Below are positions 42,544 through 57,589 of a DNA stretch of 64,000 nucleotides, piece by piece; the stretch's first letter is position 1, and each line of letters begins with the position of its first letter. Under the pieces are notes generated by a model. It had not been told where the DNA came from. It ran no database searches and saw nothing but the letters and a program-made list of their open reading frames with translations. The DNA is taken from assembly GCA_964578835.1 (NCBI GenBank), contig CAZOEL010000018.1:5088-69087 (forward strand), given 5' to 3'. Position numbers and translations under genes: made by a program. This DNA comes from an uncultured Syntrophobacteraceae bacterium (GTDB lineage Bacteria > Desulfobacterota > Syntrophobacteria > Syntrophobacterales > Syntrophobacteraceae).

Positions 42544-44709
42544 ATGCACAGACTCGACGCCATTTTCGCACCCCGGTCGGTCGCCGTAATCGGGGCCTCC
42601 ACCACACAGGGAAAAGTTGGACACGATATTTTCTTTAACATATTGAAGAGCGGGTACACGGGGGTGCTTTACCCCGTAAATCCAAACGCCCTCGCAGTTG
42701 CGAGCGTCAAAGCCTATCCCACGATAACCGACATTCCGGATGAAGTCGATCTCTCCATCATCATTCTCCCGCCTCGATTGTCGCTCAAAGCCGTTGAGGA
42801 GTCAGTCGCAAAGGGTGTGAAGGGCATTGTGATCGTTTCGGCCGGCTTTAAGGAAGTGGGACAAGAGGGCTTGGAAATTGAAAACCGAATCGTCGCCATC
42901 TGCAAAGAAGCCGAAGTGCGTCTTGTTGGGCCCAACTGCCTCGGTGTGATAAACCCGATGCCCTCCGTCAGGCTCAACGCCAGCTTCTCGAGCCGCATGC
43001 CGGCGCCCGGGAAGATATCGTTCATTTCTCAGAGCGGAGCGCTTTGCACGGCGGTTCTCGATTTTGCGGCCGATCGGGACTTCGGCTTTTCAAAATTCAT
43101 CTCCATCGGCAACAAGGCCGACGTCGATGAGCTCGATCTCCTCCAGTACCTTCACGAAGACCAGGATACGGAAGTCATTATGCTCTACCTGGAAGAGCTT
43201 CGCAGGGGAGCGGAGTTCATACAGATCGTCAAGGAAATTACTTCCGGGAGAAGAAGAACGCCGGTAATCGTGATAAAGTCGGGCAGAACGATCGCCGGGG
43301 CGCGCGCCGCGGCCTCCCACACGGGCGCGCTCGCGGGCTCCGAAGCGGTCTACGATTCCATTTTCGAACAATCCGGAATCATAAGAGCGGATTCCATCGA
43401 CGAGCTCTTCGACTTCGCCAGCGCCTTCGCCTATAAGACCGAATCGGCGCTTGGAAAGGTGAGAAGGAAGCTCCCCACCGGAAACCGCGTGGCTATTGTC
43501 ACCAACGCGGGCGGCCCCGGCATAGTCGCTACCGACATGACCATATCCTCGGGACTCGAGCTCGCCACTTTCAGCGAGGAGACCATAGAAGCTCTGGCGG
43601 AGCATCTTCCCGCCACAGCCAACATCCACAATCCGGTCGACGTCATAGGAGACGCCAGCTACGACCGCTACGAGAGCGCCCTTGCGGCGGTCACGAGAGA
43701 TGACGGAGTGGACGGGACGCTGGTCATACTCACGCCTCAGTCGATGACGAACGCTCTCGGCACGGCCGAGGCCATCGTGCGCATAGCGAGAACCTCTCCC
43801 AAGCCCATTCTCTCCTGCTTCATGGGCATTGTCGACGTCTCGAAGGGTGTGGAATACCTCCAGGCCCATGGATACCCGGTTTTCAGGTTTCCCGAAAGCG
43901 CGGCGAAAGCTTTCGGAGCCATTTATAGATACTCCAAGTGGCTGGCTCGACCGATGCTCGATCAGTTCACGTTCGAGCACGATCGGGAGCGCGCGGAAAA
44001 AATCATCCAAAAATCTCTCGCCGCCGGCAAGACCCGCCTCGGCGAAACAGTCGGGCTCGACATTCTCAAGTGCTACGGCTTCAAAGTGCTGCCCACGGAG
44101 CTGGCCCACAGTCCCGAGGAGGCGGCGAACATTGCGGAGCGCATCGGCTTTCCAGTCGTCATGAAGATCGTATCCGAGCAGATTCTCCACAAATCGGACG
44201 CGGGCGGGGTCATGGTGAAGCTGCGAAGCAGGGAGGAAGCCGCGCGCGCTTTCACGACCATTATCGAGAGTGTGAAGAAGTTCGACCCCAAGGCCATAAT
44301 TGACGGCGTTCTGGTTCAACAGATGGCTGCCCGGGGAGAGGAGCTGATACTCGGGATGAACCGCTACCCGGTATTCGGGCCGTTGGTCATGTTCGGCACG
44401 GGAGGCATATTCGTCGAAGTCTTTAAGGACGTCAAATTCGGGCTTGCTCCACTCGGCAGAAACGTGGCCATACGCATGATCCGCGGAATCAAGGGATACA
44501 GGCTTCTCACGGGATTTCGCGGAAGACCGAGGACGGATATCGAAACTGTGGAAAAAGCCATCGTGAGCTTTTCGGATCTCGTGATCAACCATCCCGAGAT
44601 TCAGGAAGTAGACATTAATCCTCTCATAGCGCACGAGGAAGGAAAAGGCGCCTCCGTAGCCGATTGTAGAATCATCCTGAAAAGCGCCGACAAAGCAAAA
44701 GAATCGTAG
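42544..44709 (+). CDS. ADP-forming acetyl-CoA synthetase family protein (CoA-binding + CoA-ligase + ATP-grasp)
   Basis: 721 aa with SVAVIGAS.....VG, GPNCLG, SQSGA and a C-terminal ATP-grasp domain (VVMKIVS..ILHKSDAGGV). Confidence 0.9.
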   Translation: MHRLDAIFAPRSVAVIGASTTQGKVGHDIFFNILKSGYTGVLYPVNPNALAVASVKAYPTITDIPDEVDLSIIILPPRLSLKAVEESVAKGVKGIVIVSAGFKEVGQEGLEIENRIVAICKEAEVRLVGPNCLGVINPMPSVRLNASFSSRMPAPGKISFISQSGALCTAVLDFAADRDFGFSKFISIGNKADVDELDLLQYLHEDQDTEVIMLYLEELRRGAEFIQIVKEITSGRRRTPVIVIKSGRTIAGARAAASHTGALAGSEAVYDSIFEQSGIIRADSIDELFDFASAFAYKTESALGKVRRKLPTGNRVAIVTNAGGPGIVATDMTISSGLELATFSEETIEALAEHLPATANIHNPVDVIGDASYDRYESALAAVTRDDGVDGTLVILTPQSMTNALGTAEAIVRIARTSPKPILSCFMGIVDVSKGVEYLQAHGYPVFRFPESAAKAFGAIYRYSKWLARPMLDQFTFEHDRERAEKIIQKSLAAGKTRLGETVGLDILKCYGFKVLPTELAHSPEEAANIAERIGFPVVMKIVSEQILHKSDAGGVMVKLRSREEAARAFTTIIESVKKFDPKAIIDGVLVQQMAARGEELILGMNRYPVFGPLVMFGTGGIFVEVFKDVKFGLAPLGRNVAIRMIRGIKGYRLLTGFRGRPRTDIETVEKAIVSFSDLVINHPEIQEVDINPLIAHEEGKGASVADCRIILKSADKAKES

Positions 44710-44845
44710 CAGCGCCTCTGAAGCGCATTATCTGCGACTGCGGCCTCAAGTGATTACAATTAGATGAGTCAGGCAATCCAAGCATCGAGATAAACGAGGG
44801 AATAAGCCATTCATCTATTTTAGCGCTTTGTTGGAGGAGAAATAA

Positions 44846-46360
44846 ATGCCAAAGTTGTCCGGATTCCCCCTTCTCACTGCAGAAGAGGCCGCCTCTCAGA
44901 TTCCCGATGGCGCGATGGTCGCCTTCAGCGGCTTCACCAATGCCGGCGCGGTAAAAGCTATTCCACGGGCGATAGCAGCCCGAGCGCGCGAACTGCACGA
45001 TAAGGGCGAGCCTTATAAGATCCGAGTTCTTACGGGCGCTTCGAGCGGCGCCAGCATTGACGGCGCCCTGGCCGAGGCGGACGCTATTTCCTGGCGCGCC
45101 CCGTACCAGAGCGGCCCCGTTCTACGAAAGCAGATAAACAATCAGGAAGTGGAATATGTGGACATGCATCTATCGCATGTCCCGCAGGCGGTGCTCTTCG
45201 GTTTTTTCGGAAAGTTGGACGTCGCGGTGGTCGAAGCCACTGAAGTCCTGCCGGATGGAAGAGTCTATCTTACAGCCTCCATCGGAGCGTCTCCTACATA
45301 CCTCAAATATGCGGACCGCGTCATAATCGAGCTGAATCATTTCCATTCCGTGAGACTGCGCGAGATGTCGGACATTCTCGTTCTGCCTCCGCCGCCGCAC
45401 AGAAGCCCCATCGCCATTCACGACCCTTTGACCAAAGTCGGCTCGCCTCACGCCATGGTCGATCCGAAAAGAATCATCGGAATTGTCGAAAACAACGAGT
45501 CGGACCATGTCCCTCTGTTTACCGCCGAGGATGAAGCCAGCCACAAAATTGCGGAGCATGTGGTGCGGTTTCTGATCGAAGAAAAGAGGGCTGGCCACAT
45601 TCCCGAAGAATTTCTGCCTCTTCAGGCCGGAGTCGGCAATGTGGCGAACAGCGTCATGGCCGCCCTGGGCAGGAACCCCGACATTCCCAACTTTACGATG
45701 TACTCGGAAGTATTTCAGGAGTCGCTTGTGGAGCTTATGGAACAAGGGCGGCTCACGGCCGTGAGCTCTTGCGCCCTCACCATTACGACGCCATCTCTCA
45801 AGCGCATCTATGACAACATGGATTTCTTTGCTCCCAAGATCGTGCTGCGCCCCCAGGAGCTTTCGAATCACCCCGGAGTCGTGCGCCGACTCGGCGTCAT
45901 TGCGCTCAACACCGCTCTGGAAGTTGATATTTACGGAAACGTCAATTCGTCCCATGTTTTCGGAACGGATATCATGAACGGAGTGGGAGGCAGCGGAGAA
46001 TTCACTCGCAACAGTTATCTCTCGGTCTTCATGTGTCCTTCCATCGCGAAGGGAGGCCGGATATCAGCCATCGTTCCCATGTGCCCCCATATCGACAACA
46101 ACGAGCACTCGGTCCAGATAGTCGTAACGGAGCAGGGACTCGCCGATTTGCGTGGACTCGGGCCCATGCAGCGTGCGAAAGCAATCATCGAAAACTGCGC
46201 CCACCCCGCCTATCGGGATTATCTCTATCGCTACATCGAGAATTCAAGGCTCGGGCATATTCGTCATAACCTTGCGAATTGTTTCGAACTGCATCGAAAC
46301 CTCATCGAGTCGGGCGCCATGCTGCCCGATCTTGATCTATCGGCTATAGGCAACGTTTAA
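44846..46360 (+). CDS. Succinate/acetate CoA-transferase (acetyl-CoA hydrolase/transferase family, AarC/Cat1/ScpC-like)
   Basis: 504 aa. The N-terminus is AFSGFTNAGAVKAIPRAIA, with GVGNVANSV, EVDIYGNVNS and GVGGSGEF segments typical of this family. Confidence 0.85.
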   Translation: MPKLSGFPLLTAEEAASQIPDGAMVAFSGFTNAGAVKAIPRAIAARARELHDKGEPYKIRVLTGASSGASIDGALAEADAISWRAPYQSGPVLRKQINNQEVEYVDMHLSHVPQAVLFGFFGKLDVAVVEATEVLPDGRVYLTASIGASPTYLKYADRVIIELNHFHSVRLREMSDILVLPPPPHRSPIAIHDPLTKVGSPHAMVDPKRIIGIVENNESDHVPLFTAEDEASHKIAEHVVRFLIEEKRAGHIPEEFLPLQAGVGNVANSVMAALGRNPDIPNFTMYSEVFQESLVELMEQGRLTAVSSCALTITTPSLKRIYDNMDFFAPKIVLRPQELSNHPGVVRRLGVIALNTALEVDIYGNVNSSHVFGTDIMNGVGGSGEFTRNSYLSVFMCPSIAKGGRISAIVPMCPHIDNNEHSVQIVVTEQGLADLRGLGPMQRAKAIIENCAHPAYRDYLYRYIENSRLGHIRHNLANCFELHRNLIESGAMLPDLDLSAIGNV

Positions 46361-46397
46361 TATTGAAATCCAAAACAACAGGACCGACATCAATTCA

Positions 46398-47369
46398 ATG
46401 GACAATTACGCGCTATCTTCTCTCAACGGGTTTGCTGCGCAAGGCATCGACAGGGCGACAGCCAGAAGAAAAGACGAAAGATGGATTGCAGACCGACTGA
46501 AAGATCCAACCACTCGATTCCTGCCTCTCTGGAATTTGAAGAACCTGGTTACGGACGCTTCGGAGCTTCATCCGGTCCTATTTTCGATAAGCGAGATTGA
46601 AGATTTTTTATCGACTGCGGATTCAATCACCTTCCTGGGAGAAGATGAGGAGCATGCATACTTCTCCTTTGCTCTTCCGCTTGGCGGCCCCACGCCTGAG
46701 GCAGTGTTCGAGCGATACGGCAAATTTGAAGATTTGAGAAAAGTAGCGGGTCTGTTGAAGAGCGGGGATGCGGGGCTTCTCGCTCACGCCAGAGGAATGG
46801 CTCACTGGCATGTCCGCCACAGGTTCTGCGGCGATTGCGGAAGTCCCACCAAGAGCATCGAAGCGGGTTATCAGCGCATCTGCACAAATAAAGAATGCGG
46901 GCAGCTTCACTTTCCACGCACCGACCCCGCCATAATAGTGATGGTGACTCGTGGCGAGAAGTGCCTTCTCGGTCGTCAGCCGATATGGCCGAAGGGGATG
47001 TATTCAACCATCGCAGGCTTTGTCGAACCGGGCGAATCCCTTGAAGAAGCCGTAGCCCGCGAAGTTCTCGAGGAAACCGGAATTGAAGCGGCCTCCATAT
47101 CCTATCGATCGTCGCAGCCGTGGCCGTTTCCAAGCTCTCTGATGCTCGGGTTCAACGCCAAAACGGAAACGGAAGAAATTCGGCTCGATGACAAGGAGTT
47201 AGAGGACGCCAGGTGGTTTAGCAGGGAAGAGATTCAAAAGACCATCCTGGAAAAAAGCCTGAAGCTTCCGCCTTCGATCTCCATCGCTTACCGTTTGATT
47301 GAAGACTGGTTTGACTCGGTTCGGCCCTGGCGGTTGAAGGAAGTATTGAGCAACGCGCGCAACGCTTGA
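46398..47369 (+). CDS. nudC: NAD(+) diphosphatase / NADH pyrophosphatase NudC
   Basis: Zinc-ribbon CGDCG...C..C followed by the Nudix box GFVEPGESLEEAVAREVLEETGI and the SQPWPFPSSLM motif. Confidence 0.9.
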   Translation: MDNYALSSLNGFAAQGIDRATARRKDERWIADRLKDPTTRFLPLWNLKNLVTDASELHPVLFSISEIEDFLSTADSITFLGEDEEHAYFSFALPLGGPTPEAVFERYGKFEDLRKVAGLLKSGDAGLLAHARGMAHWHVRHRFCGDCGSPTKSIEAGYQRICTNKECGQLHFPRTDPAIIVMVTRGEKCLLGRQPIWPKGMYSTIAGFVEPGESLEEAVAREVLEETGIEAASISYRSSQPWPFPSSLMLGFNAKTETEEIRLDDKELEDARWFSREEIQKTILEKSLKLPPSISIAYRLIEDWFDSVRPWRLKEVLSNARNA

Positions 47370-47423
47370 GAAACTGTCTGATAAAAGGGTTATTGTCTCT
47401 TTGCCTACACCTATTTCGTCGTT

Positions 47424-47496
47424 CCGGCATGTTTCTAGCCGGAATCCAAGTTTTGCGCTGAGCTGGATTCCGGCTTAAAGACTGCCGGAATGACGG
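47424..47496 (+). repeat. Structured 73-nt interspersed repeat, copy A
   Basis: CCGGCATGT..TAGCCGG.ATCCAA-[13-nt variable loop]-CTGGATTCCGGCTT.AAGACTGCCGGAATGACGG. The internal inverted repeat GCCGGAATCCA/TGGATTCCGGC can fold as a hairpin. The same element recurs at 49260..49332. Confidence 0.8.
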
Positions 47497-47572
47497 GAAA
47501 GGGAATTTTTTGACAGTTTCTGAAGCGCGCGACGCACGTTGAAGAACTGCGCTCCAGGCGCTTCGCCCTCCG

Positions 47573-48880
47573 TCATTTTCCCGAAGATGCGGCAATGTCC
47601 TTTATGGCCCCTGCAATTTTGCTCAGGGCGCCGAGGCGCTCCTTGGCTTTCTCGAGATAGGGCAGCGCCTCCGGGTTCTTCAGCTTCCCCAGAGCCTGCG
47701 CTGTCCAGTTGACGATGTACGGGCTTTCATGATCCGTAAGCCTTGTCAAAATAGCAAAGCTCTCGGGGGTCTCGATATTTCCTAATACGGATATGAGCCC
47801 GACCTTCAAATCATCAAAGGCCGCGTCTTTTTGCAGTATCTCGTCAATGACGCCCACTGCGCGCCCACCGAAGCTCTCAAGGCTCACCAGGCATTTCTGC
47901 GCAAAGAAAGGAAGGCGAAACATGGAAAGCTCGGCAAGCAGCCTCACGCTTTCATCCGTTCCATAAGCGCGAAGAAGATCCGGAACAAAAAGGCTCGCCC
48001 ACGAAAAACTGTAGGTCAGGGGCAGCAGATAGGGAATAGCGGCCGGACCTTCCGCCTCGATGCCGGAAAGCACGGGCTCGAGCGCCTGTCGGCGGACTTC
48101 ATAGCCATCCGCATCCTTGTCCGAAAAACGCTTCAAGTCATTTGCCGCCTTTAGCTTCTCGACTTCCTTTGCAATAGGAGAGCCCTTCAGGACAGGATAC
48201 ATCTCGCTGTAAGCCCGGGCCTGTTTGGATATCCAAAATTTGTCGAGCCAGGTGGAAGGAGAATAAAAGTGCACAACGTTCTTGCGGTCCACTCCCTCCC
48301 GCTTGTGAAAACCGTTCTCCTGATAGAATTCCTTCTCTTCCTTGGATACCTGCCAGCGGCGGCGGCAGGTAAAAAAGGCGTTCTGATAGTCGCCCATGGC
48401 GAGCATGGCGCTTACAGCGATATCGTGAAGCCGGTCATCTTCTGGAAAAGTCTCGAGCAACCGTTTGGCCAGACGATCCGCTTTGACGAAATCCTGAGAG
48501 AATAGGAAGTCGAAGCCTTTCCTGACCTCCTTTTCGAGAGTCTCACTCGCTCTCGACCGCTCTTCCATCTGTTGCAGATAGTGAGCAGGAACATTCTTTC
48601 TGGCTTCTTCATGCCTTGGAAGACAACACTTCTTATATTTTTTGCCAGACCCGCAAGGGCAAGGCTCATTGCGTCCCGTCTTCCGCACGATCAGATCATC
48701 GGCCTGGGCCGCTTGTTTTATAGAGCCCTGGTAGGCGGCCACCCGTTTATCCAGTTCCTCGCGGGAAATGCCGTATCGGGCGCAAATAGCTTCAGGATCG
48801 CCGCCCTTAAGGAATTCGACGACAGGTTGCATAGGGTTTACGGGGGAGGAGATTCCTCCCGAGGGTTGAGAGCTTTCCAT
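47573..48880 (-). CDS. SEC-C metal-binding-motif protein with HEAT-like C-terminal repeats
   Basis: 435 aa. GRNEPCPCGSGKKYKKCC is a SEC-C motif. The C-terminal third has HEAT/PBS-lyase-like repeats (…LGNIETPESFAILTRLTDHESPYIVNWTAQALGKLKNPEALPYL). Confidence 0.75.
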   Translation of the reverse strand: MESSQPSGGISSPVNPMQPVVEFLKGGDPEAICARYGISREELDKRVAAYQGSIKQAAQADDLIVRKTGRNEPCPCGSGKKYKKCCLPRHEEARKNVPAHYLQQMEERSRASETLEKEVRKGFDFLFSQDFVKADRLAKRLLETFPEDDRLHDIAVSAMLAMGDYQNAFFTCRRRWQVSKEEKEFYQENGFHKREGVDRKNVVHFYSPSTWLDKFWISKQARAYSEMYPVLKGSPIAKEVEKLKAANDLKRFSDKDADGYEVRRQALEPVLSGIEAEGPAAIPYLLPLTYSFSWASLFVPDLLRAYGTDESVRLLAELSMFRLPFFAQKCLVSLESFGGRAVGVIDEILQKDAAFDDLKVGLISVLGNIETPESFAILTRLTDHESPYIVNWTAQALGKLKNPEALPYLEKAKERLGALSKIAGAIKDIAASSGK

Positions 48881-49218
48881 ACAGTTTCCTTTCCAGATGA
48901 TTTAGCGAGAGAATGCAAGCTGTGAAATCCTCTCGCATAGCAGCGCATAAAACATTAGATTATTATCAACTTTCCATTCTCATGTCAAAATTATCGACTA
49001 GAGAAGTGGAAAAATGGAAGATTCTATTTTACGTTTTGGCTTTCTGACGAACGGGTTTAGGATTATTATTCATTCGGAGCCTCACAGCGCTTCTTGCGAA
49101 AACGGGTCCAGGCGATGGAAAGACAGGGCGTCTCCGTCGCAAAGGTGAGGGGAGTTTCCGAAGCTTTTGAAGCTCCAGAAACAAATGGTCAAGATGATGG
49201 AAGAAACGTGTAAGGCGA

Positions 49219-49373
49219 CTCACAACAAATAACCTACCAGGAAGAGGGATTTTGTCATACCGGCATGTCTTTAGCCGGTATCCAACCCAGCGTAAGACCT
49301 GGATTCCGGCTTGAAGACTGCCGGAATGACGGTGGGTGTTTCTGAACCACTTTGGCAGGTTATTTGTTGTGAG
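49219..49373. mobile_element. MITE-like 155-bp unit: 20-bp terminal inverted repeats enclosing repeat copy B
   Basis: CTCACAACAAATAACCTACC (49219..49238) versus the reverse complement of GGCAGGTTATTTGTTGTGAG (49354..49373) matches at 19 of 20 positions by eye. No transposase is present. Confidence 0.35.
49260..49332 (+). repeat. Structured 73-nt interspersed repeat, copy B
   Basis: Same orientation as copy A. Outside the 13-nt central loop about 56 of 60 positions are identical by eye. Confidence 0.8.
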
Positions 49374-49391
49374 CGGCCTAATAGAAAGGTG

Positions 49392-49925
49392 ATGGATATG
49401 CCCTCTGAAACGGTGGAAGGGCTTTCAGCCAGTCTGGAAGACTATCTCGAAGTCATTTACCACCTGGAACAGTCAAACCGGGTTGCTCGGGCCAAAGACA
49501 TAGCCGATCAAATGAATGTTCAGCGCGCCTCTGTAACCGGAGCGCTCAAATCTTTGGCGGGAAGAGGACTGATAAATTACAGTCCCTACAGCTTCATCAC
49601 CCTTACCAGCGAGGGTCGAACCATTGCGCGGGATATTATTCATCGCCACGATACTTTGAAGCGCTTCTTCATGAATACGCTGCAACTGGACCCGGAACAG
49701 GCGGAAGCAAACGCCTGCCGCATCGAGCACGCCATCGACCTCATGGCCATCGACAGGCTGGTTCGCTTCCTGGAGTTTCTTCAGATCTGCCCACGCACGG
49801 GCATAGACTGGTTCGACGCCTTCGCCAGGTTTTGCAAAAAAGGAGCCCAAACTTCCAGTTGCGAGAAGTGCCTCAAAGAATGCCTCCAGCAGGTCTTGGA
49901 GTCGGAAGCCAAAAGCAAGGAATGA
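49392..49925 (+). CDS. DtxR/MntR-family metal-dependent transcriptional regulator with Cys-rich C-terminal tail
   Basis: LEDYLEVIYHLEQ...ARAKDIADQMNVQRASVTGALKSLAGRGLI (wHTH) followed by the dimerisation/metal domain (HRHDTLKRFF...EHAID). The start is ATG 49392 or 49398. The C-terminus carries five extra cysteines. Confidence 0.85.
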   Translation: MDMPSETVEGLSASLEDYLEVIYHLEQSNRVARAKDIADQMNVQRASVTGALKSLAGRGLINYSPYSFITLTSEGRTIARDIIHRHDTLKRFFMNTLQLDPEQAEANACRIEHAIDLMAIDRLVRFLEFLQICPRTGIDWFDAFARFCKKGAQTSSCEKCLKECLQQVLESEAKSKE

Positions 49926-49929
49926 TTTT

Positions 49930-50808
49930 CTATGCTTTTTCGTCCGGCGGCCCTCCCTTAACGGAGGAACGCACAACGAAATCCAAAAAGGCGGAGCTTT
50001 CCTCATACGCGCCGCCGCAGAAGTCTTTTCCTAAATGCTTGGAGCTTTGCTCGAAGTCTTTGATGAAAGCATCCAAATCTGCATCATCATACCATTTGTC
50101 GTAAGATTCCAACCCTTGTTTGAGCTGATCCAGGATTTCCCTCGTATATGGATTCATCTTGGCGATGGCGGAATAGAGCTCGGGACTCTGGGAAAACATT
50201 CTTCCGACCAAGTTTATTTCCATCCTGTAAATGGGGCTGGTGTAAGCCATGGTCTCCGCAATATCAACCCCGAGCTCCCTCAGAACCCTGCCCTTCAGCA
50301 TTGTCAGCATATGGAAAAGCACCTGAATGATGCTCATCATGCGGTCATGCTCCTCGGGGGCGCATTCTTTGACCCGGATTCCGGCATCGGTAAAGAGCCT
50401 CGCGATGCGCCGCCACATCGAAGGCTCGATGCGCACGGGACAAGCCACCATGCTCTGTCCCGCAAAGGTCTCTATCCTTCCGCCAAACATCGGGTGCAGC
50501 CCCAGCACGGATGCTCTGGAAGCAAGCATTTCCTTAACGGTCGCAACTTTGAGGCTCGTCAGATCGATAAGCAGTTGATCGGGACGCGTATGCGGGACAA
50601 GCTCCCGAATAATGTCCACCGAGAGGTGGAGAGGGACCGCGAACACTACGATATCCGACGCCTCCACGGCTTGGCGGCTACTGAGCCCCGTTTGTAGGTC
50701 GGCTACTTCAACCCGATACCCGCGTTCCCGGAAAAAGGCGGAAAAAAGCCGTCCCATCTCTCCCAAGCCTCCGATTACTCCCACAGCAGAACCAGGCCCC
50801 CACTGCAT
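49930..50808 (-). CDS. tyrA: Prephenate dehydrogenase
   Basis: VGVIGGLGEMG Rossmann motif, DLTSLK, GLHPMFG, EEHDRMMSIIQVLFH and SPIYRMEINLVGR. ATG 50808 has the best RBS (GAGGA, 7-nt spacing). In-frame alternatives are 50868, 50931 and 50949. Confidence 0.85.
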   Translation of the reverse strand: MQWGPGSAVGVIGGLGEMGRLFSAFFRERGYRVEVADLQTGLSSRQAVEASDIVVFAVPLHLSVDIIRELVPHTRPDQLLIDLTSLKVATVKEMLASRASVLGLHPMFGGRIETFAGQSMVACPVRIEPSMWRRIARLFTDAGIRVKECAPEEHDRMMSIIQVLFHMLTMLKGRVLRELGVDIAETMAYTSPIYRMEINLVGRMFSQSPELYSAIAKMNPYTREILDQLKQGLESYDKWYDDADLDAFIKDFEQSSKHLGKDFCGGAYEESSAFLDFVVRSSVKGGPPDEKA

Positions 50809-51028
50809 TGGTTTGTCCTCGCCATTCTCCCGGCGCTCGCGATCGGACACAAAGCTTTCTTCTCTCATAGGATTCCAACGCCTCGCTTGGACCTTCTTTT
50901 GATAATATCCATGATCTTCTTCGCCTCTCATTCCGCTAGTTCGAATCAACTCTCATTGTAGAACAACAAAACGCTGTCTCACTCCTTACAACCGGCTCAT
51001 GGGCAGACATCGCCCACAAAATAAAAAA

Positions 51029-51056
51029 GCCGTGGAAGCTTTGAGGCATCCACGGC
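51029..51056 (-). terminator. Rho-independent terminator (candidate attenuator) between the leader ORF and tyrA
   Basis: 8-bp GC-rich stem GCCGTGGA/TCCACGGC with a 12-nt loop. It is flanked by an A-run and a T-run. On the minus strand the stem is followed by TTTTTTAT. Confidence 0.6.
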
Positions 51057-51082
51057 TTTTGGCAACAATCTTCGCACAGCTA

Positions 51083-51157
51083 TCAGCAGCGCACGCCTCC
51101 GTCATCACGGTAAAAACCGCTCCAGTAATAGCAATAATAATAACACGGGCTGTTCAT
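51083..51157 (-). CDS. 24-codon Tyr/aromatic-rich leader-type micro-ORF (MNSPCYYYCYYWSGFYRDDGGVRC)
   Basis: Hand translation; the ORF is below the ORF-track length cut-off. GGGAG lies 8 nt upstream of ATG 51157. There are 6 Tyr, 1 Trp and 1 Phe codons. A terminator follows 27 nt after the stop, and tyrA is next on the same strand. Confidence 0.45.
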   Translation of the reverse strand: MNSPCYYYCYYWSGFYRDDGGVRC

Positions 51158-51193
51158 GGCTCTCGCTCCCATCTGCTTTTAGCGTGAGCGATC

Positions 51194-51223
51194 ACCATAG
51201 TTCAAGGCAAAGCGGAGTGTCAA
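51194..51223 (-). promoter_or_regulatory. Sigma70-like promoter for the leader ORF/tyrA unit
   Basis: On the minus strand: TTGACA (51223..51218), an 18-nt spacer, then TATGGT (51199..51194). The -10 is about 37 nt upstream of the leader ATG. Confidence 0.4.
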
Positions 51224-51277
51224 GGCTTTTGGCCAAACGCTCACGCAGCAACTCTTCAAAAGGCGAAAGACAGACGA

Positions 51278-51574
51278 TCAACCAAGATATACAAACACGT
51301 ATTCCCGATCGTTGATGTCAACGACGATCCTGCCGCCTCTCGATTCAGCATAGACAAGCCATCCAGGCTTTTTGCCATTGCATCACTCAACTCTTGGCGA
51401 AAATTCGCCGGATTTCTTATCGAACCACGCCAACAGCATGGCGTCGGGATTAACCTCCAGAGCTTTACCATCGGCCAGCGTCCTGGCGGCCGAGAAGGTG
51501 AGATCCCGATCGGGCGCATTCACGCACACAGGAGAATTCAACATTTCACGGGTAAGCTCGACGCAGGGAGACAT
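51278..51574 (-). CDS. Candidate selenoprotein (98 codons) with in-frame TGA-TGC (U-C) motif
   Basis: ATG 51574 follows AAAGGA with 6-nt spacing. The frame is open except for TGA at 51385..51383 and ends at TGA 51280..51278. Product: MSPCVELTREMLNSPVCVNAPDRDLTFSAARTLADGKALEVNPDAMLLAWFDKKSGEFSPRVE-U-CNGKKPGWLVYAESRGGRIVVDINDREYVFVYLG. Confidence 0.55.
51356..51370 (-). promoter_or_regulatory. SECIS-like hairpin downstream of the in-frame TGA
   Basis: In the mRNA, AAGCC-UGGAU-GGCUU starts 13 nt after the UGA. The apical loop contains GG. Flanking A/U pairs could extend the stem with bulges. Confidence 0.35.
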
Positions 51575-52027
51575 AGATTTTCCTTTCCATGTTGAGTATA
51601 GATGACTTGAGCTTCCATAAAAGAGCATCTTGCCGATCCGCCTCTTTTATCTTTACTCACAAAATACATTATCCATTAGTGCCAAAATACTCTCTTGACC
51701 GTATATCATCACACTGCACTCATGATGTAAAGTGGCTCCCAGATACCCCCATATGCTTCAACCGCCCTTTGCACCATCGAGTAAAACCACAGCGCCAGGA
51801 GGCCGGGTCCCCCTCCCCGGCCTCTCGCCCGCCCCTGAGCGCGAGCCTTCACTTGATCGAAATGCCGCATTTTCACAGGCATTCTCCTTTGAAGCATTCT
51901 CTTTCATAGGCGGCAAGACGCTGCCCAACAACAACATTCTTATTCCTCAATATGAGAACTACTGATTATTGACTCGTCAATCTGGTTAGTACATGTTATT
52001 TGCATTAGTAACGGTTGACCGGCGGGG

Positions 52028-52052
52028 ATTGGTTCGATCCCAATGGCCGATG
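52028..52052 (+). other. tRNA 3'-portion-like fragment (canonical T-arm plus acceptor-like tail), no complete tRNA
   Basis: ATTGG-TTCGATC-CCAAT (5-bp stem, 7-nt GTTCGATCC-type loop) followed by GGCCGATG. No complementary 5' acceptor strand, D-arm or anticodon arm was found upstream. Confidence 0.4.
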
Positions 52053-52163
52053 AATTAGCGGCCACCATGAACGAGACACTGCAGTAAGACGCGAAGTGAG
52101 CAAAAAGGGAGCTTCCCCCTGGCATCAAGCTCAGGTGGAACAGGTTGAATAGGAGAGGACATA

Positions 52164-52592
52164 TTGAAGACGAATACAACACCCTTGGTAGTAATGGCAG
52201 ACGATGACGACGACGATTGTATGCTTGCCAAGGACGCCTTTGCAGAAAGTCTCGCCCCGGGCGCCATTCACTGTGTTGAGGATGGCATAGAGCTTTTGGA
52301 TTATCTCGAAGGCATCGAAGAGGATGGAATCAACGACCGAAAAGATCTTCCAGCCCTGATTCTGCTCGATCTGAACATGCCAAGAAAGGATGGACGTCAG
52401 GCTCTCAAGGAAATCAAGTCGACTCCCGCTTTTCAGGGCATCCCGATTGTTGTGCTCACCACATCCAGAGAGGAAAGAGACATCATCTTCAGTCGCGAGA
52501 TGGGCGCCAACAGCTTCATAACCAAGCCCGCAACCTTTGACGAGTGGGTGGATATGATGAAATCTCTAGTGGAAAAATGGCTCCTCTATTAA
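52164..52592 (+). CDS. Stand-alone response-regulator receiver protein (CheY/Rcp1-like)
   Basis: 142 aa with a TTG start after AGGAGAGG. Has the acidic pocket DDDDDD, the phospho-acceptor context LILLDLNMP, plus LTTS and KP. Confidence 0.85.
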   Translation: MKTNTTPLVVMADDDDDDCMLAKDAFAESLAPGAIHCVEDGIELLDYLEGIEEDGINDRKDLPALILLDLNMPRKDGRQALKEIKSTPAFQGIPIVVLTTSREERDIIFSREMGANSFITKPATFDEWVDMMKSLVEKWLLY

Positions 52593-52610
52593 CTTTTTGT
52601 CCTTCATTCA

Positions 52611-54125
52611 TCAGTTTGGATCGTCGCAGTCATTATACCCGCATGATTTGAAAATATTGAGGATAGTATTGATCACATATGATTCTTCTTCATATCGGAA
52701 AGCTTGGTTGAGGGCCTTCGTCACTTCCGCTATTCTTTCATAAGCGCTGGCGACGCCGTCCGCGAAAAAGCGCATATTTTTCAAGGTCATCTGGATTTGA
52801 GATATGGCTTCATGCGGGCTGCGCCCCAGAGCAAGCTCTTCGACCAATTCGTCGAGAAACGCCATCTCTTCCATAACGCCGTCTTTAGAGCCAAGAAGGT
52901 GCATGAGGTGCGTATTGAGGTAATGACACATACTTCCCGCCGCATTACGCAGGACTCTGTTCCGTTGCTCCTCCAGGGCTCTCGAGATATTCTGCGCAAT
53001 TCCTTCATGGTAAAGGAAGCCGCCCCCGTCGTCGGTCTTGACCCGCGCTGTAATGGCAACTTCGATCGCTTCTCCGGTCTTGTCTCGAAATCTAACGTGC
53101 TTCCCTTCGATGCGACCTTTACCGTAAAGCTCCTGGATCAAATCCTCCCTTTCCGCAAGGTCCACGTAGAAATCTTTTACATTGCTCGCAAGCGCAATTT
53201 CTTTATTCTCGAAGCCTAGAAGCTTCATACCGGCGTTGTTGATATCGAGAAATCTCCCGTCGGCAGACAGCGTAAACGCCATATCGCTCGTTGATTCGAA
53301 AAAATCTCTGTACTTCGCTTCGTTCTGCCTGAGAGCTTCAATGGCTTTCCTCTCCTCTGTGATGTCCTTGATGACATGATCAATCCTCCGAATGGCTCCC
53401 CTGGAGGTATAAACCACATGCCCTTCATCGCGCACCCATTTCACCCTTTTGTCGCTGCTGATGATTCTATACTGCGTCTCATCAAATTCGGCTTCGGGCA
53501 AATTGTCGTAGAATTGCTTCACTTTTACCAGGTCGTCGGGATGCACGAAGCTCATGATGTGGCTTTCCCCACTGGTAAAATCCCTGGCGGGGACGCCATA
53601 GAGAGCTTCGGCTGCGGGATTGATCGCAAGTATCCAGTAACCGTTCGGCGATATGGAGACAACGACTTCACTCATGGACTGAAGTATGCTTTCGAACCGG
53701 TCCTTGATCCTTTCCAATTCTATTCGGGTCTTGCGCCGCTCCGTGATGTCCGTCAGCGCGCCGAGAATCGCAGGGGCGCCTCCGCATTCGATGACGCTTA
53801 CTTTCATCTCGATGATCGCGTCCCCATCCTCTCTCGGCATGGAGAACTCGATCCGATCAGAAAGACGGTCAGTAAAGAGCCGCTCGGTGCAGTATCGGGC
53901 GACTCTCTCCCGATCCACCGCCGACAGAAAACTCGAAAAGTCCGCCTTGAAGACCTGTTCCGGGCTTCTTCGCGAGATTTCGCAAAAACTGTTGTTTGCA
54001 AAGACTATTTTGCCTTCCCTTATGATGACGACGCCCTCGTTGATATGCTCCACAACACCCCGGTAATCGATGTCCCCCTGGCATATCCTTATCTCTTGAG
54101 CATCCTCGAATGTATTACGCCTCAT
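52611..54125 (-). CDS. Multi-PAS-domain sensor protein without recognisable output domain
   Basis: 504 aa with an AGAGGA RBS. Three PAS-like units are present (…VVIIREGKIVFANNSF…, …WILAINPAAEALYG…, …RFLDINNAGMKLLG…). The C-terminal ~120 aa has no HisKA/HATPase, GGDEF or HTH motif that I can see. Confidence 0.8.
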   Translation of the reverse strand: MRRNTFEDAQEIRICQGDIDYRGVVEHINEGVVIIREGKIVFANNSFCEISRRSPEQVFKADFSSFLSAVDRERVARYCTERLFTDRLSDRIEFSMPREDGDAIIEMKVSVIECGGAPAILGALTDITERRKTRIELERIKDRFESILQSMSEVVVSISPNGYWILAINPAAEALYGVPARDFTSGESHIMSFVHPDDLVKVKQFYDNLPEAEFDETQYRIISSDKRVKWVRDEGHVVYTSRGAIRRIDHVIKDITEERKAIEALRQNEAKYRDFFESTSDMAFTLSADGRFLDINNAGMKLLGFENKEIALASNVKDFYVDLAEREDLIQELYGKGRIEGKHVRFRDKTGEAIEVAITARVKTDDGGGFLYHEGIAQNISRALEEQRNRVLRNAAGSMCHYLNTHLMHLLGSKDGVMEEMAFLDELVEELALGRSPHEAISQIQMTLKNMRFFADGVASAYERIAEVTKALNQAFRYEEESYVINTILNIFKSCGYNDCDDPN

Positions 54126-54212
54126 TGGTTTCCTCTATGCTTCCGCTGGCTCCGCCGCCTCTTCAGCACACGGGTCAGCCGCTGTGAGTCAGCGTCACAA
54201 ATGTCAAAGGGC

Positions 54213-55694
54213 TCATCCCCTCGCAATCCATTCGGCCAAAATCGGTATTGAAGCGACGGGCTCCAAAAAGGAAGTCCACTCACACTGGGCGGTCAGCTCC
54301 ACACCGTCCCGGATAACGGATACGGGCCTATCGGAAGATACCACAATAACCACCACATTTGCATGCTTTGCGGTGAATCTCAGAGCGGAGTTGAAGCGCG
54401 CCCCTCGAGCCCTGTTCTCGCCGGGAACCGCAGCGCCGTCCATAAGACAGGCGAAGGCGTACAGATGCAGATCCGCTCGGATATGGAGCGAGCCGTCGAG
54501 CTTCGCCAGCGATGTAGCCAGCTCCAGGAACCGCGGCTCCCGGAGATCCAGCGGCGCTTCAATCTGCTGCCCGGAGATCGGAGTGCAGGAGTCGTTCAGG
54601 TCTATCACAATCGAGCAGCCGTACTGATTGTCGCAAGCCTCGCAGACAATCTGGGAGATGATTTTGAAGAGGATATGGATAACGGAGGGGTCGACGTTGA
54701 GCTCGATCAGAGTCTCCTCGAGGACGACCAGGTTCGGCTTGCGCGTGGATGAATGATATCTCCCTTCCGAGAAGCTGCAGACCATTTTTTCGGCAAACCG
54801 CAGGAATCCATATCCGCCCATGTAATCGGCCGTGATATTGCACTCGGGAATGGGATCGGCGGCGATTCCCACAACGTTCTCCCCGTCTGAGACGACTCTC
54901 CTGTCAGAGTGCTCCACAGCCAGCAGGAGCTTTCTGACATATTTATAATTCTTGAGACTCGGCCTCTCGTATGGAGGAAAACGTGTCAGAAAATCCATCT
55001 CTTCCAGAGATCCCGGCTCCACAAAAACCAGCATCCCACGGGGCCATGAGCCTTCCTCCTGGGTCTTGGAAATCCCCAGAATCGCATCGAGGATCGGGTA
55101 GACTTCCAGATGGACATCCCACCCGAAACGGATGTTCATTTCATCTCGAATATAATCCCTAACCGCATGAGTTGCATACTCTCGTAAAACGTAACTGGAA
55201 GTTCCGATATAGCTCCCCTGATTGGCGAAGTCATGGGCGAGGAGACAGACGGCGTGCTCGAGCCATCTTTCGATGGGTCCAATGGAGCACATGTCCGGGT
55301 GGTGCTCGGTAAACCACATCTGATAGAAAAAGGAGCGAGTCCTTCCTCCGTATGAAATCAGGCCGGCAAGCTGCAGATTCTTCTCCGGATCGATTATGCC
55401 GCAGAAACGGTCGCCAATGTATCGAGCCGGGATTTTTCGCCAATGGTCGGAATCGAGGTAGAGCTCTTTTAGCTTCGGCTCGTGGCCTCTGAGCAGGTCT
55501 TGGGGATCGTAGATGGATATCGGGTCCTCAGGCTTTTCCGCAAACAGCAGAGCTGCGCGGCTGGGTCCAGAGAAGTGAGAGATGCCTTCGCAAAGGCCGT
55601 CCAACACATGGTACATGCACAATTTCTTGGAAGGATCGTTGATTATCAACCAGTCTCTCCATAACGCAGAAAAATGAGGGCAGCCTCCGGACAT
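54213..55694 (-). CDS. DisA_N (diadenylate cyclase)-like domain protein with degenerate catalytic motifs
   Basis: 493 aa. The C-terminal ~130 aa align by eye with the DAC fold: GCSIVID / LDGSLHI / GARFNSALRFTAKHANVVVIVVSSDRPVSV versus GALIVIE / HDGAVI / GTRHRAA..VSEETG. DGA is replaced by DGS and RHR by RFN. The N-terminal ~330 aa are unassigned. Confidence 0.6.
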   Translation of the reverse strand: MSGGCPHFSALWRDWLIINDPSKKLCMYHVLDGLCEGISHFSGPSRAALLFAEKPEDPISIYDPQDLLRGHEPKLKELYLDSDHWRKIPARYIGDRFCGIIDPEKNLQLAGLISYGGRTRSFFYQMWFTEHHPDMCSIGPIERWLEHAVCLLAHDFANQGSYIGTSSYVLREYATHAVRDYIRDEMNIRFGWDVHLEVYPILDAILGISKTQEEGSWPRGMLVFVEPGSLEEMDFLTRFPPYERPSLKNYKYVRKLLLAVEHSDRRVVSDGENVVGIAADPIPECNITADYMGGYGFLRFAEKMVCSFSEGRYHSSTRKPNLVVLEETLIELNVDPSVIHILFKIISQIVCEACDNQYGCSIVIDLNDSCTPISGQQIEAPLDLREPRFLELATSLAKLDGSLHIRADLHLYAFACLMDGAAVPGENRARGARFNSALRFTAKHANVVVIVVSSDRPVSVIRDGVELTAQCEWTSFLEPVASIPILAEWIARG

Positions 55695-55726
55695 TTCGGA
55701 TCGTCGATCGACATGAGCAGCATCTC

Positions 55727-56683
55727 CTATTCCGGCGGCAAGAGCTCGATCCGAAGGCGGATAATGCCGTCATCGGCCGGCGGCTCGCTTTGGGTCGTCT
55801 CTATCTTTCCAAAGCGGCCAAGCTCTTTGAGGAGCGCTCCATACGCAGAAGCCGGCGCCTCAGCATCAAGCGCCAGAGCCGTTCCTGCGCCGCTCCCGGG
55901 TTGTGGCTGCAAGACTTTGCCATCTATGAGCAGAATGATCTGCCTTATCTCATCTAAGATTCGATCCCTCGCCGGCGTGTAGGCATCAAGAGAAAATTTT
56001 TCTATTTTCCCCTCCCCGCGCCGAGCAGAGCCTTTTGCCCGTTCCTTGCCTTCCTCAACAAGAGCGGCGCGCTCCCTCAATTGCATATCCGATTCGCTTT
56101 CGACCGGCTTCGATGGCGCGGATGCTTTCCCGCCAAGCGAGGCTCTCGGCAGCGCAAGAGTGATGAGGACCCTTTCCTGCCGACTCTCCGGGCTTGGAGC
56201 CGCTGACCTTGGAACAGCCGAGAGGACCGGTTCTTCCTGGCCCGCGTCTTGCGGGCTCATTCGCTCAGGGGCGGCAGGTTGCAGTCTGTCCATTCCGATG
56301 ATTGGCGCGGGAGAAACATGCTCTCTTTCCTCGAGAGCTCCTTTCTGAACCGTCTGATAAGTCACAATTACAAGGAGCAAGGCGGCGGCGACTCCCGCCC
56401 AGTGAAAAAATCTCCATCCTTCCCAAAAGGCTGCAACCTTCCCTTCATTCTTCTTTGAAATGGAAGGCTCTTCCATGCGTCGACGAAGTCGGTCGAGAAA
56501 GTCGTCCGGAGGCTTCACCTCGGGTAAAGTCCTCAACGCTTCGAGTTGCTCTCTCAGAATCGCCAGGCGCATCGCGCAAGGCTGACAAGCGTCCACATGC
56601 GCCTCGACGCTCTGGCGAATTTCTTCCGGCATGTCGATGTCCGGATCTTCCAGAATGATCTGTCTTATCCTAGAGCAGTCCAA
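55727..56683 (-). CDS. Anti-sigma factor (zf-HC2 type), single-pass membrane protein
   Basis: The N-terminal H-x3-C-x2-C motif is present (AHVDACQPC). There is one TM segment (FFHWAGVAAALLLVIVTY). It starts 11 nt downstream of the ECF sigma gene. Confidence 0.78.
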   Translation of the reverse strand: MDCSRIRQIILEDPDIDMPEEIRQSVEAHVDACQPCAMRLAILREQLEALRTLPEVKPPDDFLDRLRRRMEEPSISKKNEGKVAAFWEGWRFFHWAGVAAALLLVIVTYQTVQKGALEEREHVSPAPIIGMDRLQPAAPERMSPQDAGQEEPVLSAVPRSAAPSPESRQERVLITLALPRASLGGKASAPSKPVESESDMQLRERAALVEEGKERAKGSARRGEGKIEKFSLDAYTPARDRILDEIRQIILLIDGKVLQPQPGSGAGTALALDAEAPASAYGALLKELGRFGKIETTQSEPPADDGIIRLRIELLPPE

Positions 56684-56694
56684 TCAGTTCCCCG

Positions 56695-57306
56695 TCACGC
56701 TCCTTGGAGCTTGTTTTGAAGCTGCAGCCTTGCCCGCGCGAGCTTCGATCTTAACGTTCCAGGATTATAATTGGTTATGCGGCATATTTCCTCATACGAA
56801 AGTCCTTCGATGTGCCGCAGCACTATGACGGTCCTGTGATCGAGAGAAAGCGAGTTGATAGCCGATTGCAGGATAGCTTCCCGCTCTTTTTCCGTCATAA
56901 TGGCCAAGGGAGATGGAGCAGGGTCCTCGAAGTCACAATCCAGACTTCCCTCCTCCTCTTTGGAATCCGTCCCGAACCGCAGTATTTTACGCCAAAAACG
57001 ACGCTCGGCGGAACAGCGCTTGTTCCTGCAGGTATTCACCGCAATGGCGTAAAGCCAAGTAGAAAAGCTCGATTGGAGCTTGAAGTTTTTAAGCGATCTG
57101 AAAACCTTGATGAAAATTTCCTGAGCGCAGTCGTCAGCATCCTCATGATCTCCAAGCAGTCTGTAACACAGGTTGAAGGTGCGGTCTTTATGCCGCAGCA
57201 CAAGCCTTTCGAACGCCTCCCGATCTCCTGACAAGAAGGCCCCGATATCTTTGATGTCGTCATCTGGCAAACAGTCCGGCATGCGCCTCACATCCACACA
57301 AATCAT
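56695..57306 (-). CDS. ECF-subfamily RNA polymerase sigma-70 factor
   Basis: Region 2 (FERLVLRHKDRTFNLCYRLLGDHEDADDCAQEIFIKVF...STWLYAIAVN) and region 4 (VIVLRHIEGLSYEEICRITNYNPGTLRSKLARAR). The start is ATG 57306 or GTG 57309. Confidence 0.9.
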   Translation of the reverse strand: MICVDVRRMPDCLPDDDIKDIGAFLSGDREAFERLVLRHKDRTFNLCYRLLGDHEDADDCAQEIFIKVFRSLKNFKLQSSFSTWLYAIAVNTCRNKRCSAERRFWRKILRFGTDSKEEEGSLDCDFEDPAPSPLAIMTEKEREAILQSAINSLSLDHRTVIVLRHIEGLSYEEICRITNYNPGTLRSKLARARLQLQNKLQGA

Positions 57307-57525
57307 CACGACCCTGCAGATCGCGCCAAAGCCTAAAAGCGCCTCCCCGTTTCATAGTCTCATAATGCAAGGAGTTGATTTTCCGCAGATAAAGCCAACA
57401 GCATCGCGCATAACGCCTCGAAGCCTTGCTTCACAAGCTCGGTCTTGAGCCTGATTCCATTACATTTAGCATGAAAAAGCATTGAAGGGCAGAGAGATGA
57501 AGATGCGCACAAGGAAGAAATTTTG

Positions 57526-57551
57526 CGTCGGCGGCAAACGCGCCGCCGACG
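57526..57551. terminator. GC-rich perfect 10-bp hairpin between the secreted-protein gene and the ECF sigma gene
   Basis: CGTCGGCGGC-AAACGC-GCCGCCGACG, 39 nt downstream of stop 57590. The flanking T/A runs are short, so intrinsic terminator function is uncertain. Confidence 0.4.
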
Positions 57552-57589
57552 TTTGAGGAATTGCCCTTGTCTATATTCGACGAAAGCAA

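Follow-up and report, generated by a model that had tools for sequence, protein, structure and literature searches.

A putative tyrosine-sensing leader-peptide attenuator ahead of tyrA in a Syntrophobacteraceae bacterium and its relatives

The DNA analyzed here, a stretch of 64,000 nucleotides from contig CAZOEL010000018.1 of an uncultured Syntrophobacteraceae bacterium (hereafter, the window), carries on its minus strand, directly ahead of the prephenate dehydrogenase gene tyrA, a compact unit of promoter, ribosome-binding site, tyrosine-rich leader open reading frame (ORF), and intrinsic terminator (Table 1). Sequence and modelling together lead us to read this unit, with a probability of about 85%, as a transcription attenuator of the ribosome-mediated leader-peptide type, with charged tRNA-Tyr as its signal and tyrA as its target. 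The elements themselves, their homology to 65 further copies in related genomes, two mutually exclusive helices, covariation within both helices, and the geometry of the unit were computed directly. An initial annotation, made from the letters alone, had already proposed a Tyr-codon attenuator at this place, and its description of the parts held up: the promoter, the GGGAG site, and the start and stop codons lie where it put them, six Tyr codons plus Trp and Phe can be read directly from the sequence, the strong hairpin has a computed stability of −21.7 kcal/mol in isolation and is followed by T6, and the next gene is identified as tyrA by Pfam (PDH_N/PDH_C) and NCBIfam models. Leader-peptide attenuation has textbook examples for Trp, Phe, His, Leu, Thr, and Ile/Val, and the mechanism itself is nothing new; it is the tyrosine specificity and the family of leaders that appear undescribed.

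The leader ORF stands out from its surroundings by its tyrosine content, which is 25% vs 2.7% in the long ORFs of the window. Its six Tyr codons (51142..51134, 51130..51125, and 51112..51110) are accompanied by one Trp and one Phe codon, and the leader is the sole instance, in all 64 kb and with both strands searched, of at least five Tyr codons within eight; the run is more than chance. Translation signals are in place as well, with the window's GGGAG aligning to a family consensus AGGAG that precedes the aligned start codon. An in-frame ATG at 51172 would extend the ORF to 29 amino acids, but it lacks a Shine-Dalgarno (SD) site, and the start codon of the family aligns with ATG 51157 and not with 51172. 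The promoter was also recovered by a promoter scan (10/12 matches), a TTGACA −35 box lies at a comparable distance in the leader loci of relatives according to the family alignment, and transcription would be expected to start near 51187.

Comparison of the regions upstream of tyrA in relatives, which the initial annotation had proposed beforehand as a check, revealed that both the Tyr-rich micro-ORF and the terminator are conserved. The best homologues of the window's TyrA are found in the Syntrophobacteraceae (Desulfobacterota), the nearest being merely 73% identical, so intergenic DNA is not expected to align trivially at this distance. Our sample consisted of 80 tyrA loci with 3-kb flanks, one per species, from Syntrophobacteraceae/Syntrophobacterales relatives. 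At least four Tyr codons within eight were found upstream of tyrA and on the tyrA strand in 63 of the 80 loci, vs a single locus on the opposite strand. Outside the leader position, about 1.0 Mb of strand-bases yielded 7 eight-codon spans with at least four Tyr and none with at least five, while the leader position held 63 and 56 such spans, respectively. Together with two members that have three Tyr codons each (L005, from the cultured Desulfoferrobacter suflitae DRH4, and L012), these 63 loci give a family of 65 relatives, or 66 sequences with the window, and in all 65 the micro-ORF and terminator stand before tyrA or aroF-tyrA, as the Tyr-codon attenuator reading predicts. Homology was supported independently by an nhmmer profile built from the 65 relatives with the window excluded, which returned a single leader-strand match in the window (51184..51020(-), 67.5 bits, E=2.8e-20); since a window-free profile recovers it, the window's leader is a homologous member of this family and not a coincidence. 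A minor second match, on the other strand (51021..51060, E=4e-4), is due only to the palindrome of the terminator stem.

Median length among the 66 leaders is 25 codons and the median Tyr count is 6 (range 3-9), with a mean content of 26% Tyr and 6% Phe; Tyr runs reach up to six, and in 66/66 the ORF begins with ATG, GTG, or (in one case) TTG behind an SD-like site. Within the run, the first codon position is almost always T, the second is mostly A (otherwise T or G), and the third is T or C only. Because third positions vary between these two bases and no others, selection acts on Tyr codons and not on a fixed RNA word, and the richness in Cys and Phe is accounted for by the same T-[A/T/G]-[T/C] pattern, these being one-step neighbours of the Tyr codons. 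Three parts expected of a leader of this type are present: a leader ORF with SD site and start codon, enrichment in codons for the end product, and a terminator between the ORF and the structural gene. As a separate observation, the leader Tyr codons favour UAU (278 TAT : 101 TAC across the 66 members), while usage in the window's genes is even (191 : 181). Bacterial tRNA-Tyr, with anticodon GUA, reads UAU by wobble, and the codon bias may tune the sensitivity of the leader.

What the leader precedes differs among genomes. In most loci a distance of 1.1-1.5 kb separates the element from the downstream tyrA, and the intervening gene in the two loci scanned (L016:1923-2936 and L003:1953-2966) encodes a 337-aa 3-deoxy-D-arabino-heptulosonate 7-phosphate (DAHP) synthase (NF006421; 494-497 bits, cutoff 335); the intervening ORF starts likewise, with MIIVM…, in many other loci. 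From these gene orders, the usual regulated unit is predicted to be aroF(DAHP synthase)-tyrA. The leader stands directly before tyrA, with the DAHP synthase gene missing there, in the window and in L001, L005, L006, L011, L012, and L026, and a tblastn search found no DAHP synthase in the 64-kb window.

The G+C core of the terminator pairs GCCGTGGA (51056..51049) with TCCACGGC (51036..51029), and the hairpin is kept in every full-length minimum free energy (MFE) structure of the window RNA; a consensus scan missed it because its loop exceeds the 8-nt limit of that scan. This terminator, A(A)GCCGUG(R)G…C(Y)CACGGCUUUUUU in the family, follows the leader in each member, and the GCCG/CGGC core of the stem is invariant in 66/66 sequences. 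RNAalifold returned the terminator as the consensus helix of the 66-sequence alignment, with compensatory changes in 4 of 9 pairs, and no other conserved helix when run on the whole alignment.

A second conserved block, GGGUAUGC(A/U)C in the family and GGAGGCGUGCGCUGC as its local version in the window, provides the 5' strand of an antiterminator (hereafter, segment 2), the other strand being the terminator's own 5' arm (segment 3). Duplex folding of segment 2 with the arm revealed this helix, and pair counts then served to test it. For the window, the duplex of 51099..51085 with 51057..51043 has a computed energy of −22.2 kcal/mol, similar to the −21.7 kcal/mol of the terminator, and the two helices are mutually exclusive. 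Full-length folds with ribosome masks cannot discriminate between the two states, and truncated-transcript folds were used instead, in which the RNA ended just before the terminator 3' arm and 30-nt ribosome masks were applied. With such a truncated transcript, the antiterminator was the MFE structure when the RNA was free or when the mask lay on the Tyr codons, and it could not form with the mask at the stop codon. An antiterminator that is exclusive with the terminator and whose 5' strand is gated by the ribosome is thus present by computation.

Across the family, 78.4% of antiterminator cells were paired in the window's register vs 28-50% when the partner was slid by 1-3 columns, a contrast that is somewhat inflated since the register was taken from the window sequence. 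Double-sided changes occurred in 7 of 13 pairs (61 cells), and the observed pairing was reached by 0/500 column shuffles, statistics that are to be read with the phylogenetic relatedness of the compared sequences in mind. Cognate duplexes of segment 2 and arm averaged −15.98 kcal/mol vs −14.75±0.27 kcal/mol for permuted combinations (p<1e-4, 63 unique pairs), and a shuffled segment 2 gave a mean of −11.9 kcal/mol with the arm. In one large subgroup, whose arm is GCCGUGAGCGCC, the helix contains bulges and its register is slightly displaced. A different antiterminator had been suggested in the initial annotation, namely GCGGUUUUU (51120..51112) with AAAAGCCGU (51060..51052); that pairing exists and is weak, as had been said, but it did not qualify as the conserved antiterminator, being worth −8.9 kcal/mol, appearing in the MFE structure only when segment 2 was masked, and relying on a U-run partner that is absent from the other family members.

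The position of segment 2 relative to the reading frame is variable. Its start falls about 10-30 nt ahead of the ORF's end in about 45 members and 1-13 nt past the stop codon in about 17, and most members place it within about 18 nt ahead of the stop codon or 1-13 nt beyond. This changing reading-frame context indicates conservation of the RNA, not of a peptide; in either placement, a modelled terminating ribosome covers it. In members whose last Tyr codon lies ahead of the motif, the motif starts about 12-30 nt beyond that codon, a placement that in the model is beyond the footprint of a ribosome stalled on Tyr. In the window, the motif starts 15 nt after the isolated sixth Tyr codon and 25-27 nt after the main YY run. 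Between the Tyr run and segment 2 the window RNA forms a small hairpin, and a comparable hairpin follows the Tyr run in about 70% of members, although its stability barely beats that of shuffles (mean z = -0.6); it is a weak candidate for a pause hairpin or for an element of the 1:2 type. A different 1:2 helix, joining AUGCAUACC of the start-codon region to GGGUAUGC, has 66% of its cells paired in the family vs 31-52% with a slid partner, with weak covariation. The complementarity is exact in L001, L005, L012, and several others, which amounts to about half of the family and is statistically weak, and this start-codon pairing is not evident in the window. Such pairing might hide the start codon or play the part of an anti-antiterminator. 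We also note that this 1:2 pairing occupies columns 86-93 and 173-180 of the family alignment (e.g., L001:2739-2748 with 2790-2798).

From this arrangement we infer transcription start, leader translation, stalling, and a tyrosine response, as follows. Transcription would begin from the promoter at 51223..51194, and a ribosome would load at ATG 51157. With Tyr-tRNA plentiful, the ribosome would reach the stop codon and cover segment 2, the arm 51057..51043 would pair with its 3' partner, and the polymerase would terminate at the U-run. With Tyr-tRNA scarce, the ribosome would stall on the Tyr codons 51142..51125, at a sufficient distance ahead of segment 2 to keep it free; free segment 2 would then pair with the 5' arm of the terminator as an antiterminator, and transcription would proceed into tyrA (or, in most relatives, aroF-tyrA).

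Several points weigh against this attenuator, or against its being a pure tyrosine sensor. Full-length equilibrium folds keep the terminator in every case, also with ribosome masks, which means that the switch has to operate kinetically, in the manner of classical attenuators. Without translation, the truncated RNA forms the antiterminator as well, which predicts read-through, and a termination-enforcing 1:2 helix is seen in only about half of the family with the weak statistics given above; the inflated slid-partner contrast of the antiterminator belongs here too. Downstream, a gap of about 155 nt separates the terminator from the tyrA start and contains two weak sigma-70-like matches (9/12; 50982..50955 and 50931..50902, minus strand). 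Some tyrA expression could thereby escape attenuation, the two matches being a possible source of basal transcription. Codons for Phe, Cys, and Trp lie beside the Tyr codons, and the specificity may therefore not be purely for Tyr. Finally, the aroR leader of Corynebacterium glutamicum, whose only aromatic codons are Phe-Tyr-Phe, was reported as sensitive to Phe limitation but insensitive to Tyr (PMC11802643).

Among other explanations, the one that fares best, though we consider it improbable, is an RNA switch that works independently of translation (a Tyr or tRNA riboswitch, a protein-bound leader of the TRAP/PyrR type, or a trans-acting small RNA), in which the UAU repeats would be a binding motif. 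The invariant GCCG/CGGC core and the highly conserved GGGUAUGC go beyond the requirements of a plain terminator, the antiterminator arises even in untranslated RNA, and a second, related hairpin exists in about 19 members, all of which would suit such a switch. However, the mutual pairing of the conserved blocks explains their conservation, and the Tyr run shows strict period-3 variation, synonymous-only between TAT and TAC, in frame with SD site and start codon in 66/66 leaders; moreover, there was no T-box or other Rfam match, and no candidate RNA-binding protein gene was linked to the element in the flanks examined.

The initial annotation had also allowed a small redox peptide or one akin to a ribosomally synthesized and post-translationally modified peptide (RiPP). 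On such a reading, the micro-ORF would encode a functional small peptide, rich in Tyr and Cys and either redox-active or a RiPP precursor, with the hairpin merely its terminator. This we regard as very unlikely. The ORF is indeed conserved together with its SD site and start codon, and Cys and aromatic residues are frequent in it, but the Cys and Phe follow from the T-[A/T/G]-Y codon pattern, and amino acid conservation is limited to the Tyr run, with N- and C-termini that diverge widely. The 3' block GGGUAUGC, by contrast, is kept at the RNA level, whether it falls inside the ORF or past the stop codon, and it covaries with the terminator arm. The element is also always found directly before aroF-tyrA or tyrA, and the flanking ORFs scanned (aroF, tyrA, and unrelated genes) included no maturation enzyme, so neither a conserved core peptide nor linked maturation genes, as expected for a RiPP or other functional peptide, were found. 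As for the idea that the ORF is there by chance and the hairpin terminates the upstream DUF5619 gene with no regulatory tie to tyrA, its likelihood is close to nil: a same-strand gene does lie upstream of the hairpin, short ORFs abound in any sequence, and the promoter scan found promoter-like matches around the leader to be no more numerous than in shuffles, but the whole promoter-to-terminator unit is kept beside aroF-tyrA in 65 other genomes, the profile match to the window has the E-value given above, Tyr-run spans are essentially absent elsewhere, the terminator lies 320 nt past the upstream stop codon with a consensus −35 box in between, and the genes upstream of the leader in the two relatives scanned are unrelated to the window's, so that the hairpin cannot be explained as merely terminating an upstream gene that is itself conserved.

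Table 1. Features of the leader element and neighbouring genes in the window (positions within the 64,000-nucleotide stretch)
Feature	Position	Strand	Details
Sigma-70-type promoter	51223..51194	minus	TTGACA 51223..51218, 18-nt spacer, TATGGT 51199..51194
Shine-Dalgarno site GGGAG	51170..51166	minus	8 nt ahead of ATG 51157
Leader ORF	51157..51083	minus	24 codons + TGA (51085..51083); peptide MNSPCYYYCYYWSGFYRDDGGVRC
Small hairpin CCGU-GAUG-ACGG, between Tyr run and segment 2	51110..51099	minus	centroid structure
Antiterminator 5' strand (segment 2), GAGGCGUGCGCUGCU	51099..51085	minus	last five leader codons + stop codon
Terminator 5' arm (segment 3), common to terminator and antiterminator	51057..51043	minus	duplex folding, pair counts
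Intrinsic terminator	51060..51023	minus	stem 51060..51049 with 51036..51025, U-run 51028..51023
tyrA, prephenate/arogenate dehydrogenase, 312 aa	50868..49930	minus	Pfam PDH_N + PDH_C, NCBIfam prephenate dehydrogenase models
DUF5619-domain small ORF, upstream of leader	51628..51383	minus	domain E=1e-10
DtxR/iron-dependent-repressor family gene	49311..49925	plus	converges on tyrA, stop codons ~5 nt apart

Regarding the neighbouring genes, the window's TyrA is identical to a 312-aa database protein (P0001) that starts at 50868. The DUF5619 ORF on the other side of the leader probably has its true start at an internal Met, which would give about 63 aa. A further terminator-like hairpin was flagged at 49901..49884 (minus strand), within the DtxR-family gene.

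A second terminator-like hairpin, GGCCGUGGG…CGCGGCCUUU (−16 to −36 kcal/mol), was observed 18-30 nt after the first terminator in about 19 of the 66 members; it is carried by L003 (1821-1861), L006, L011, L014, L021, L025, L026, L027, L041, and L049, and further by L053, L057-L059, L066, L067, L073, L078, and L080. The window is without it. The 3' arm of the first terminator and the 5' arm of the second hairpin are complementary to each other, which suggests a relay in which formation of the first antiterminator would also block the second terminator; one ribosome-dependent decision would in this way be propagated to both terminators in about 19 members. That the leaders as a whole constitute an undescribed, lineage-wide family of Tyr-tRNA-sensing attenuators in the Syntrophobacteraceae/Syntrophobacterales, with 66 copies of which about 19 contain the two-terminator relay, is a broader claim than the attenuator at tyrA in the window, and we give it even odds.

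No Rfam family matched the element. A scan of window positions 44000..58000 against the whole Rfam library at E<=1 returned nothing relevant, with only two unrelated chance matches elsewhere, and five representative loci of relatives had no match at E<=0.1; by these scans the leader belongs neither to the Rfam Trp, Phe, His, Leu, and Thr leader families nor to the T-boxes. To our knowledge, Rfam contains no leader family with Tyr as the regulatory codon. We found no description of a Tyr-run leader in the full-text literature, although most subscription journals were outside its coverage and a prior description is possible. The classical enterobacterial attenuators (pheL-pheA, trpL-trpEDCBA, hisL, leuL, and thrL) share with the present element a promoter, an SD site, an ORF with end-product codons, an intrinsic terminator before the first structural gene, and a ribosome-gated antiterminator that borrows the 5' arm of the terminator. 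The present element differs from them in its Tyr codon, its Desulfobacterota host, and its aroF-tyrA or tyrA target, in resembling no Rfam family by sequence or covariance model, and in that the 5' strand of its antiterminator overlaps the end of the ORF and a conserved 1:2 helix is not clearly present.

Tyrosine control in bacteria is otherwise known to be exerted by TyrR repressors or T-boxes. A T-box is an untranslated RNA that makes direct contact with uncharged tRNA; the Tyr T-boxes of Firmicutes resemble our element in that the signal is tRNA-Tyr charging and the outcome a choice between terminator and antiterminator, whereas here the Tyr codons appear to lie in a translated frame and no T-box match was obtained. 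TyrR is a DNA-binding repressor of E. coli aroF-tyrA, where tyrosine acts on the same operon make-up (DAHP synthase plus tyrA), and we know of no Tyr-run leader at that operon. The only related leader found is the above-mentioned aroR of C. glutamicum, an aromatic-codon leader before aroF (DAHP synthase) that works by ribosome-stalling attenuation (PMC4046766, PMC11802643). It is similar to the present leaders as an aromatic-codon leader peptide ahead of a DAHP synthase operon and different in having one Tyr codon, compared with 3-9 Tyr codons here and tyrA in the regulated unit, as well as in its unrelated sequence and different phylum. The uORFC-13-1 motif, predicted by comparative genomics in Acholeplasma (PMC8632094), likewise combines an upstream ORF and a terminator before the DAHP synthase gene aroF, but it has a Phe signal (U-run) and a different consensus and belongs to a different phylum. 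Lastly, Tyr-tRNA-dependent attenuation of E. coli aroF-tyrA is an old and unconfirmed suggestion (Camakaris 1980), here taken from its citation in PMC2659441 and PMC8632094.

If the leaders do act as proposed, the family would fill the missing tyrosine slot among the classical amino-acid attenuators, and a conserved leader whose Tyr runs reach up to six codons would be new. It would show that the same attenuation logic evolved for tyrosine in an anaerobic, syntrophic lineage. The 66 sequences with defined helices are ready material for an Rfam-type model and would allow better annotation of these metagenome-assembled genomes, in which the element and its micro-ORF match no Rfam family. For the organisms themselves, which are hard to grow, the finding gives a prediction of how they regulate aromatic amino-acid synthesis.

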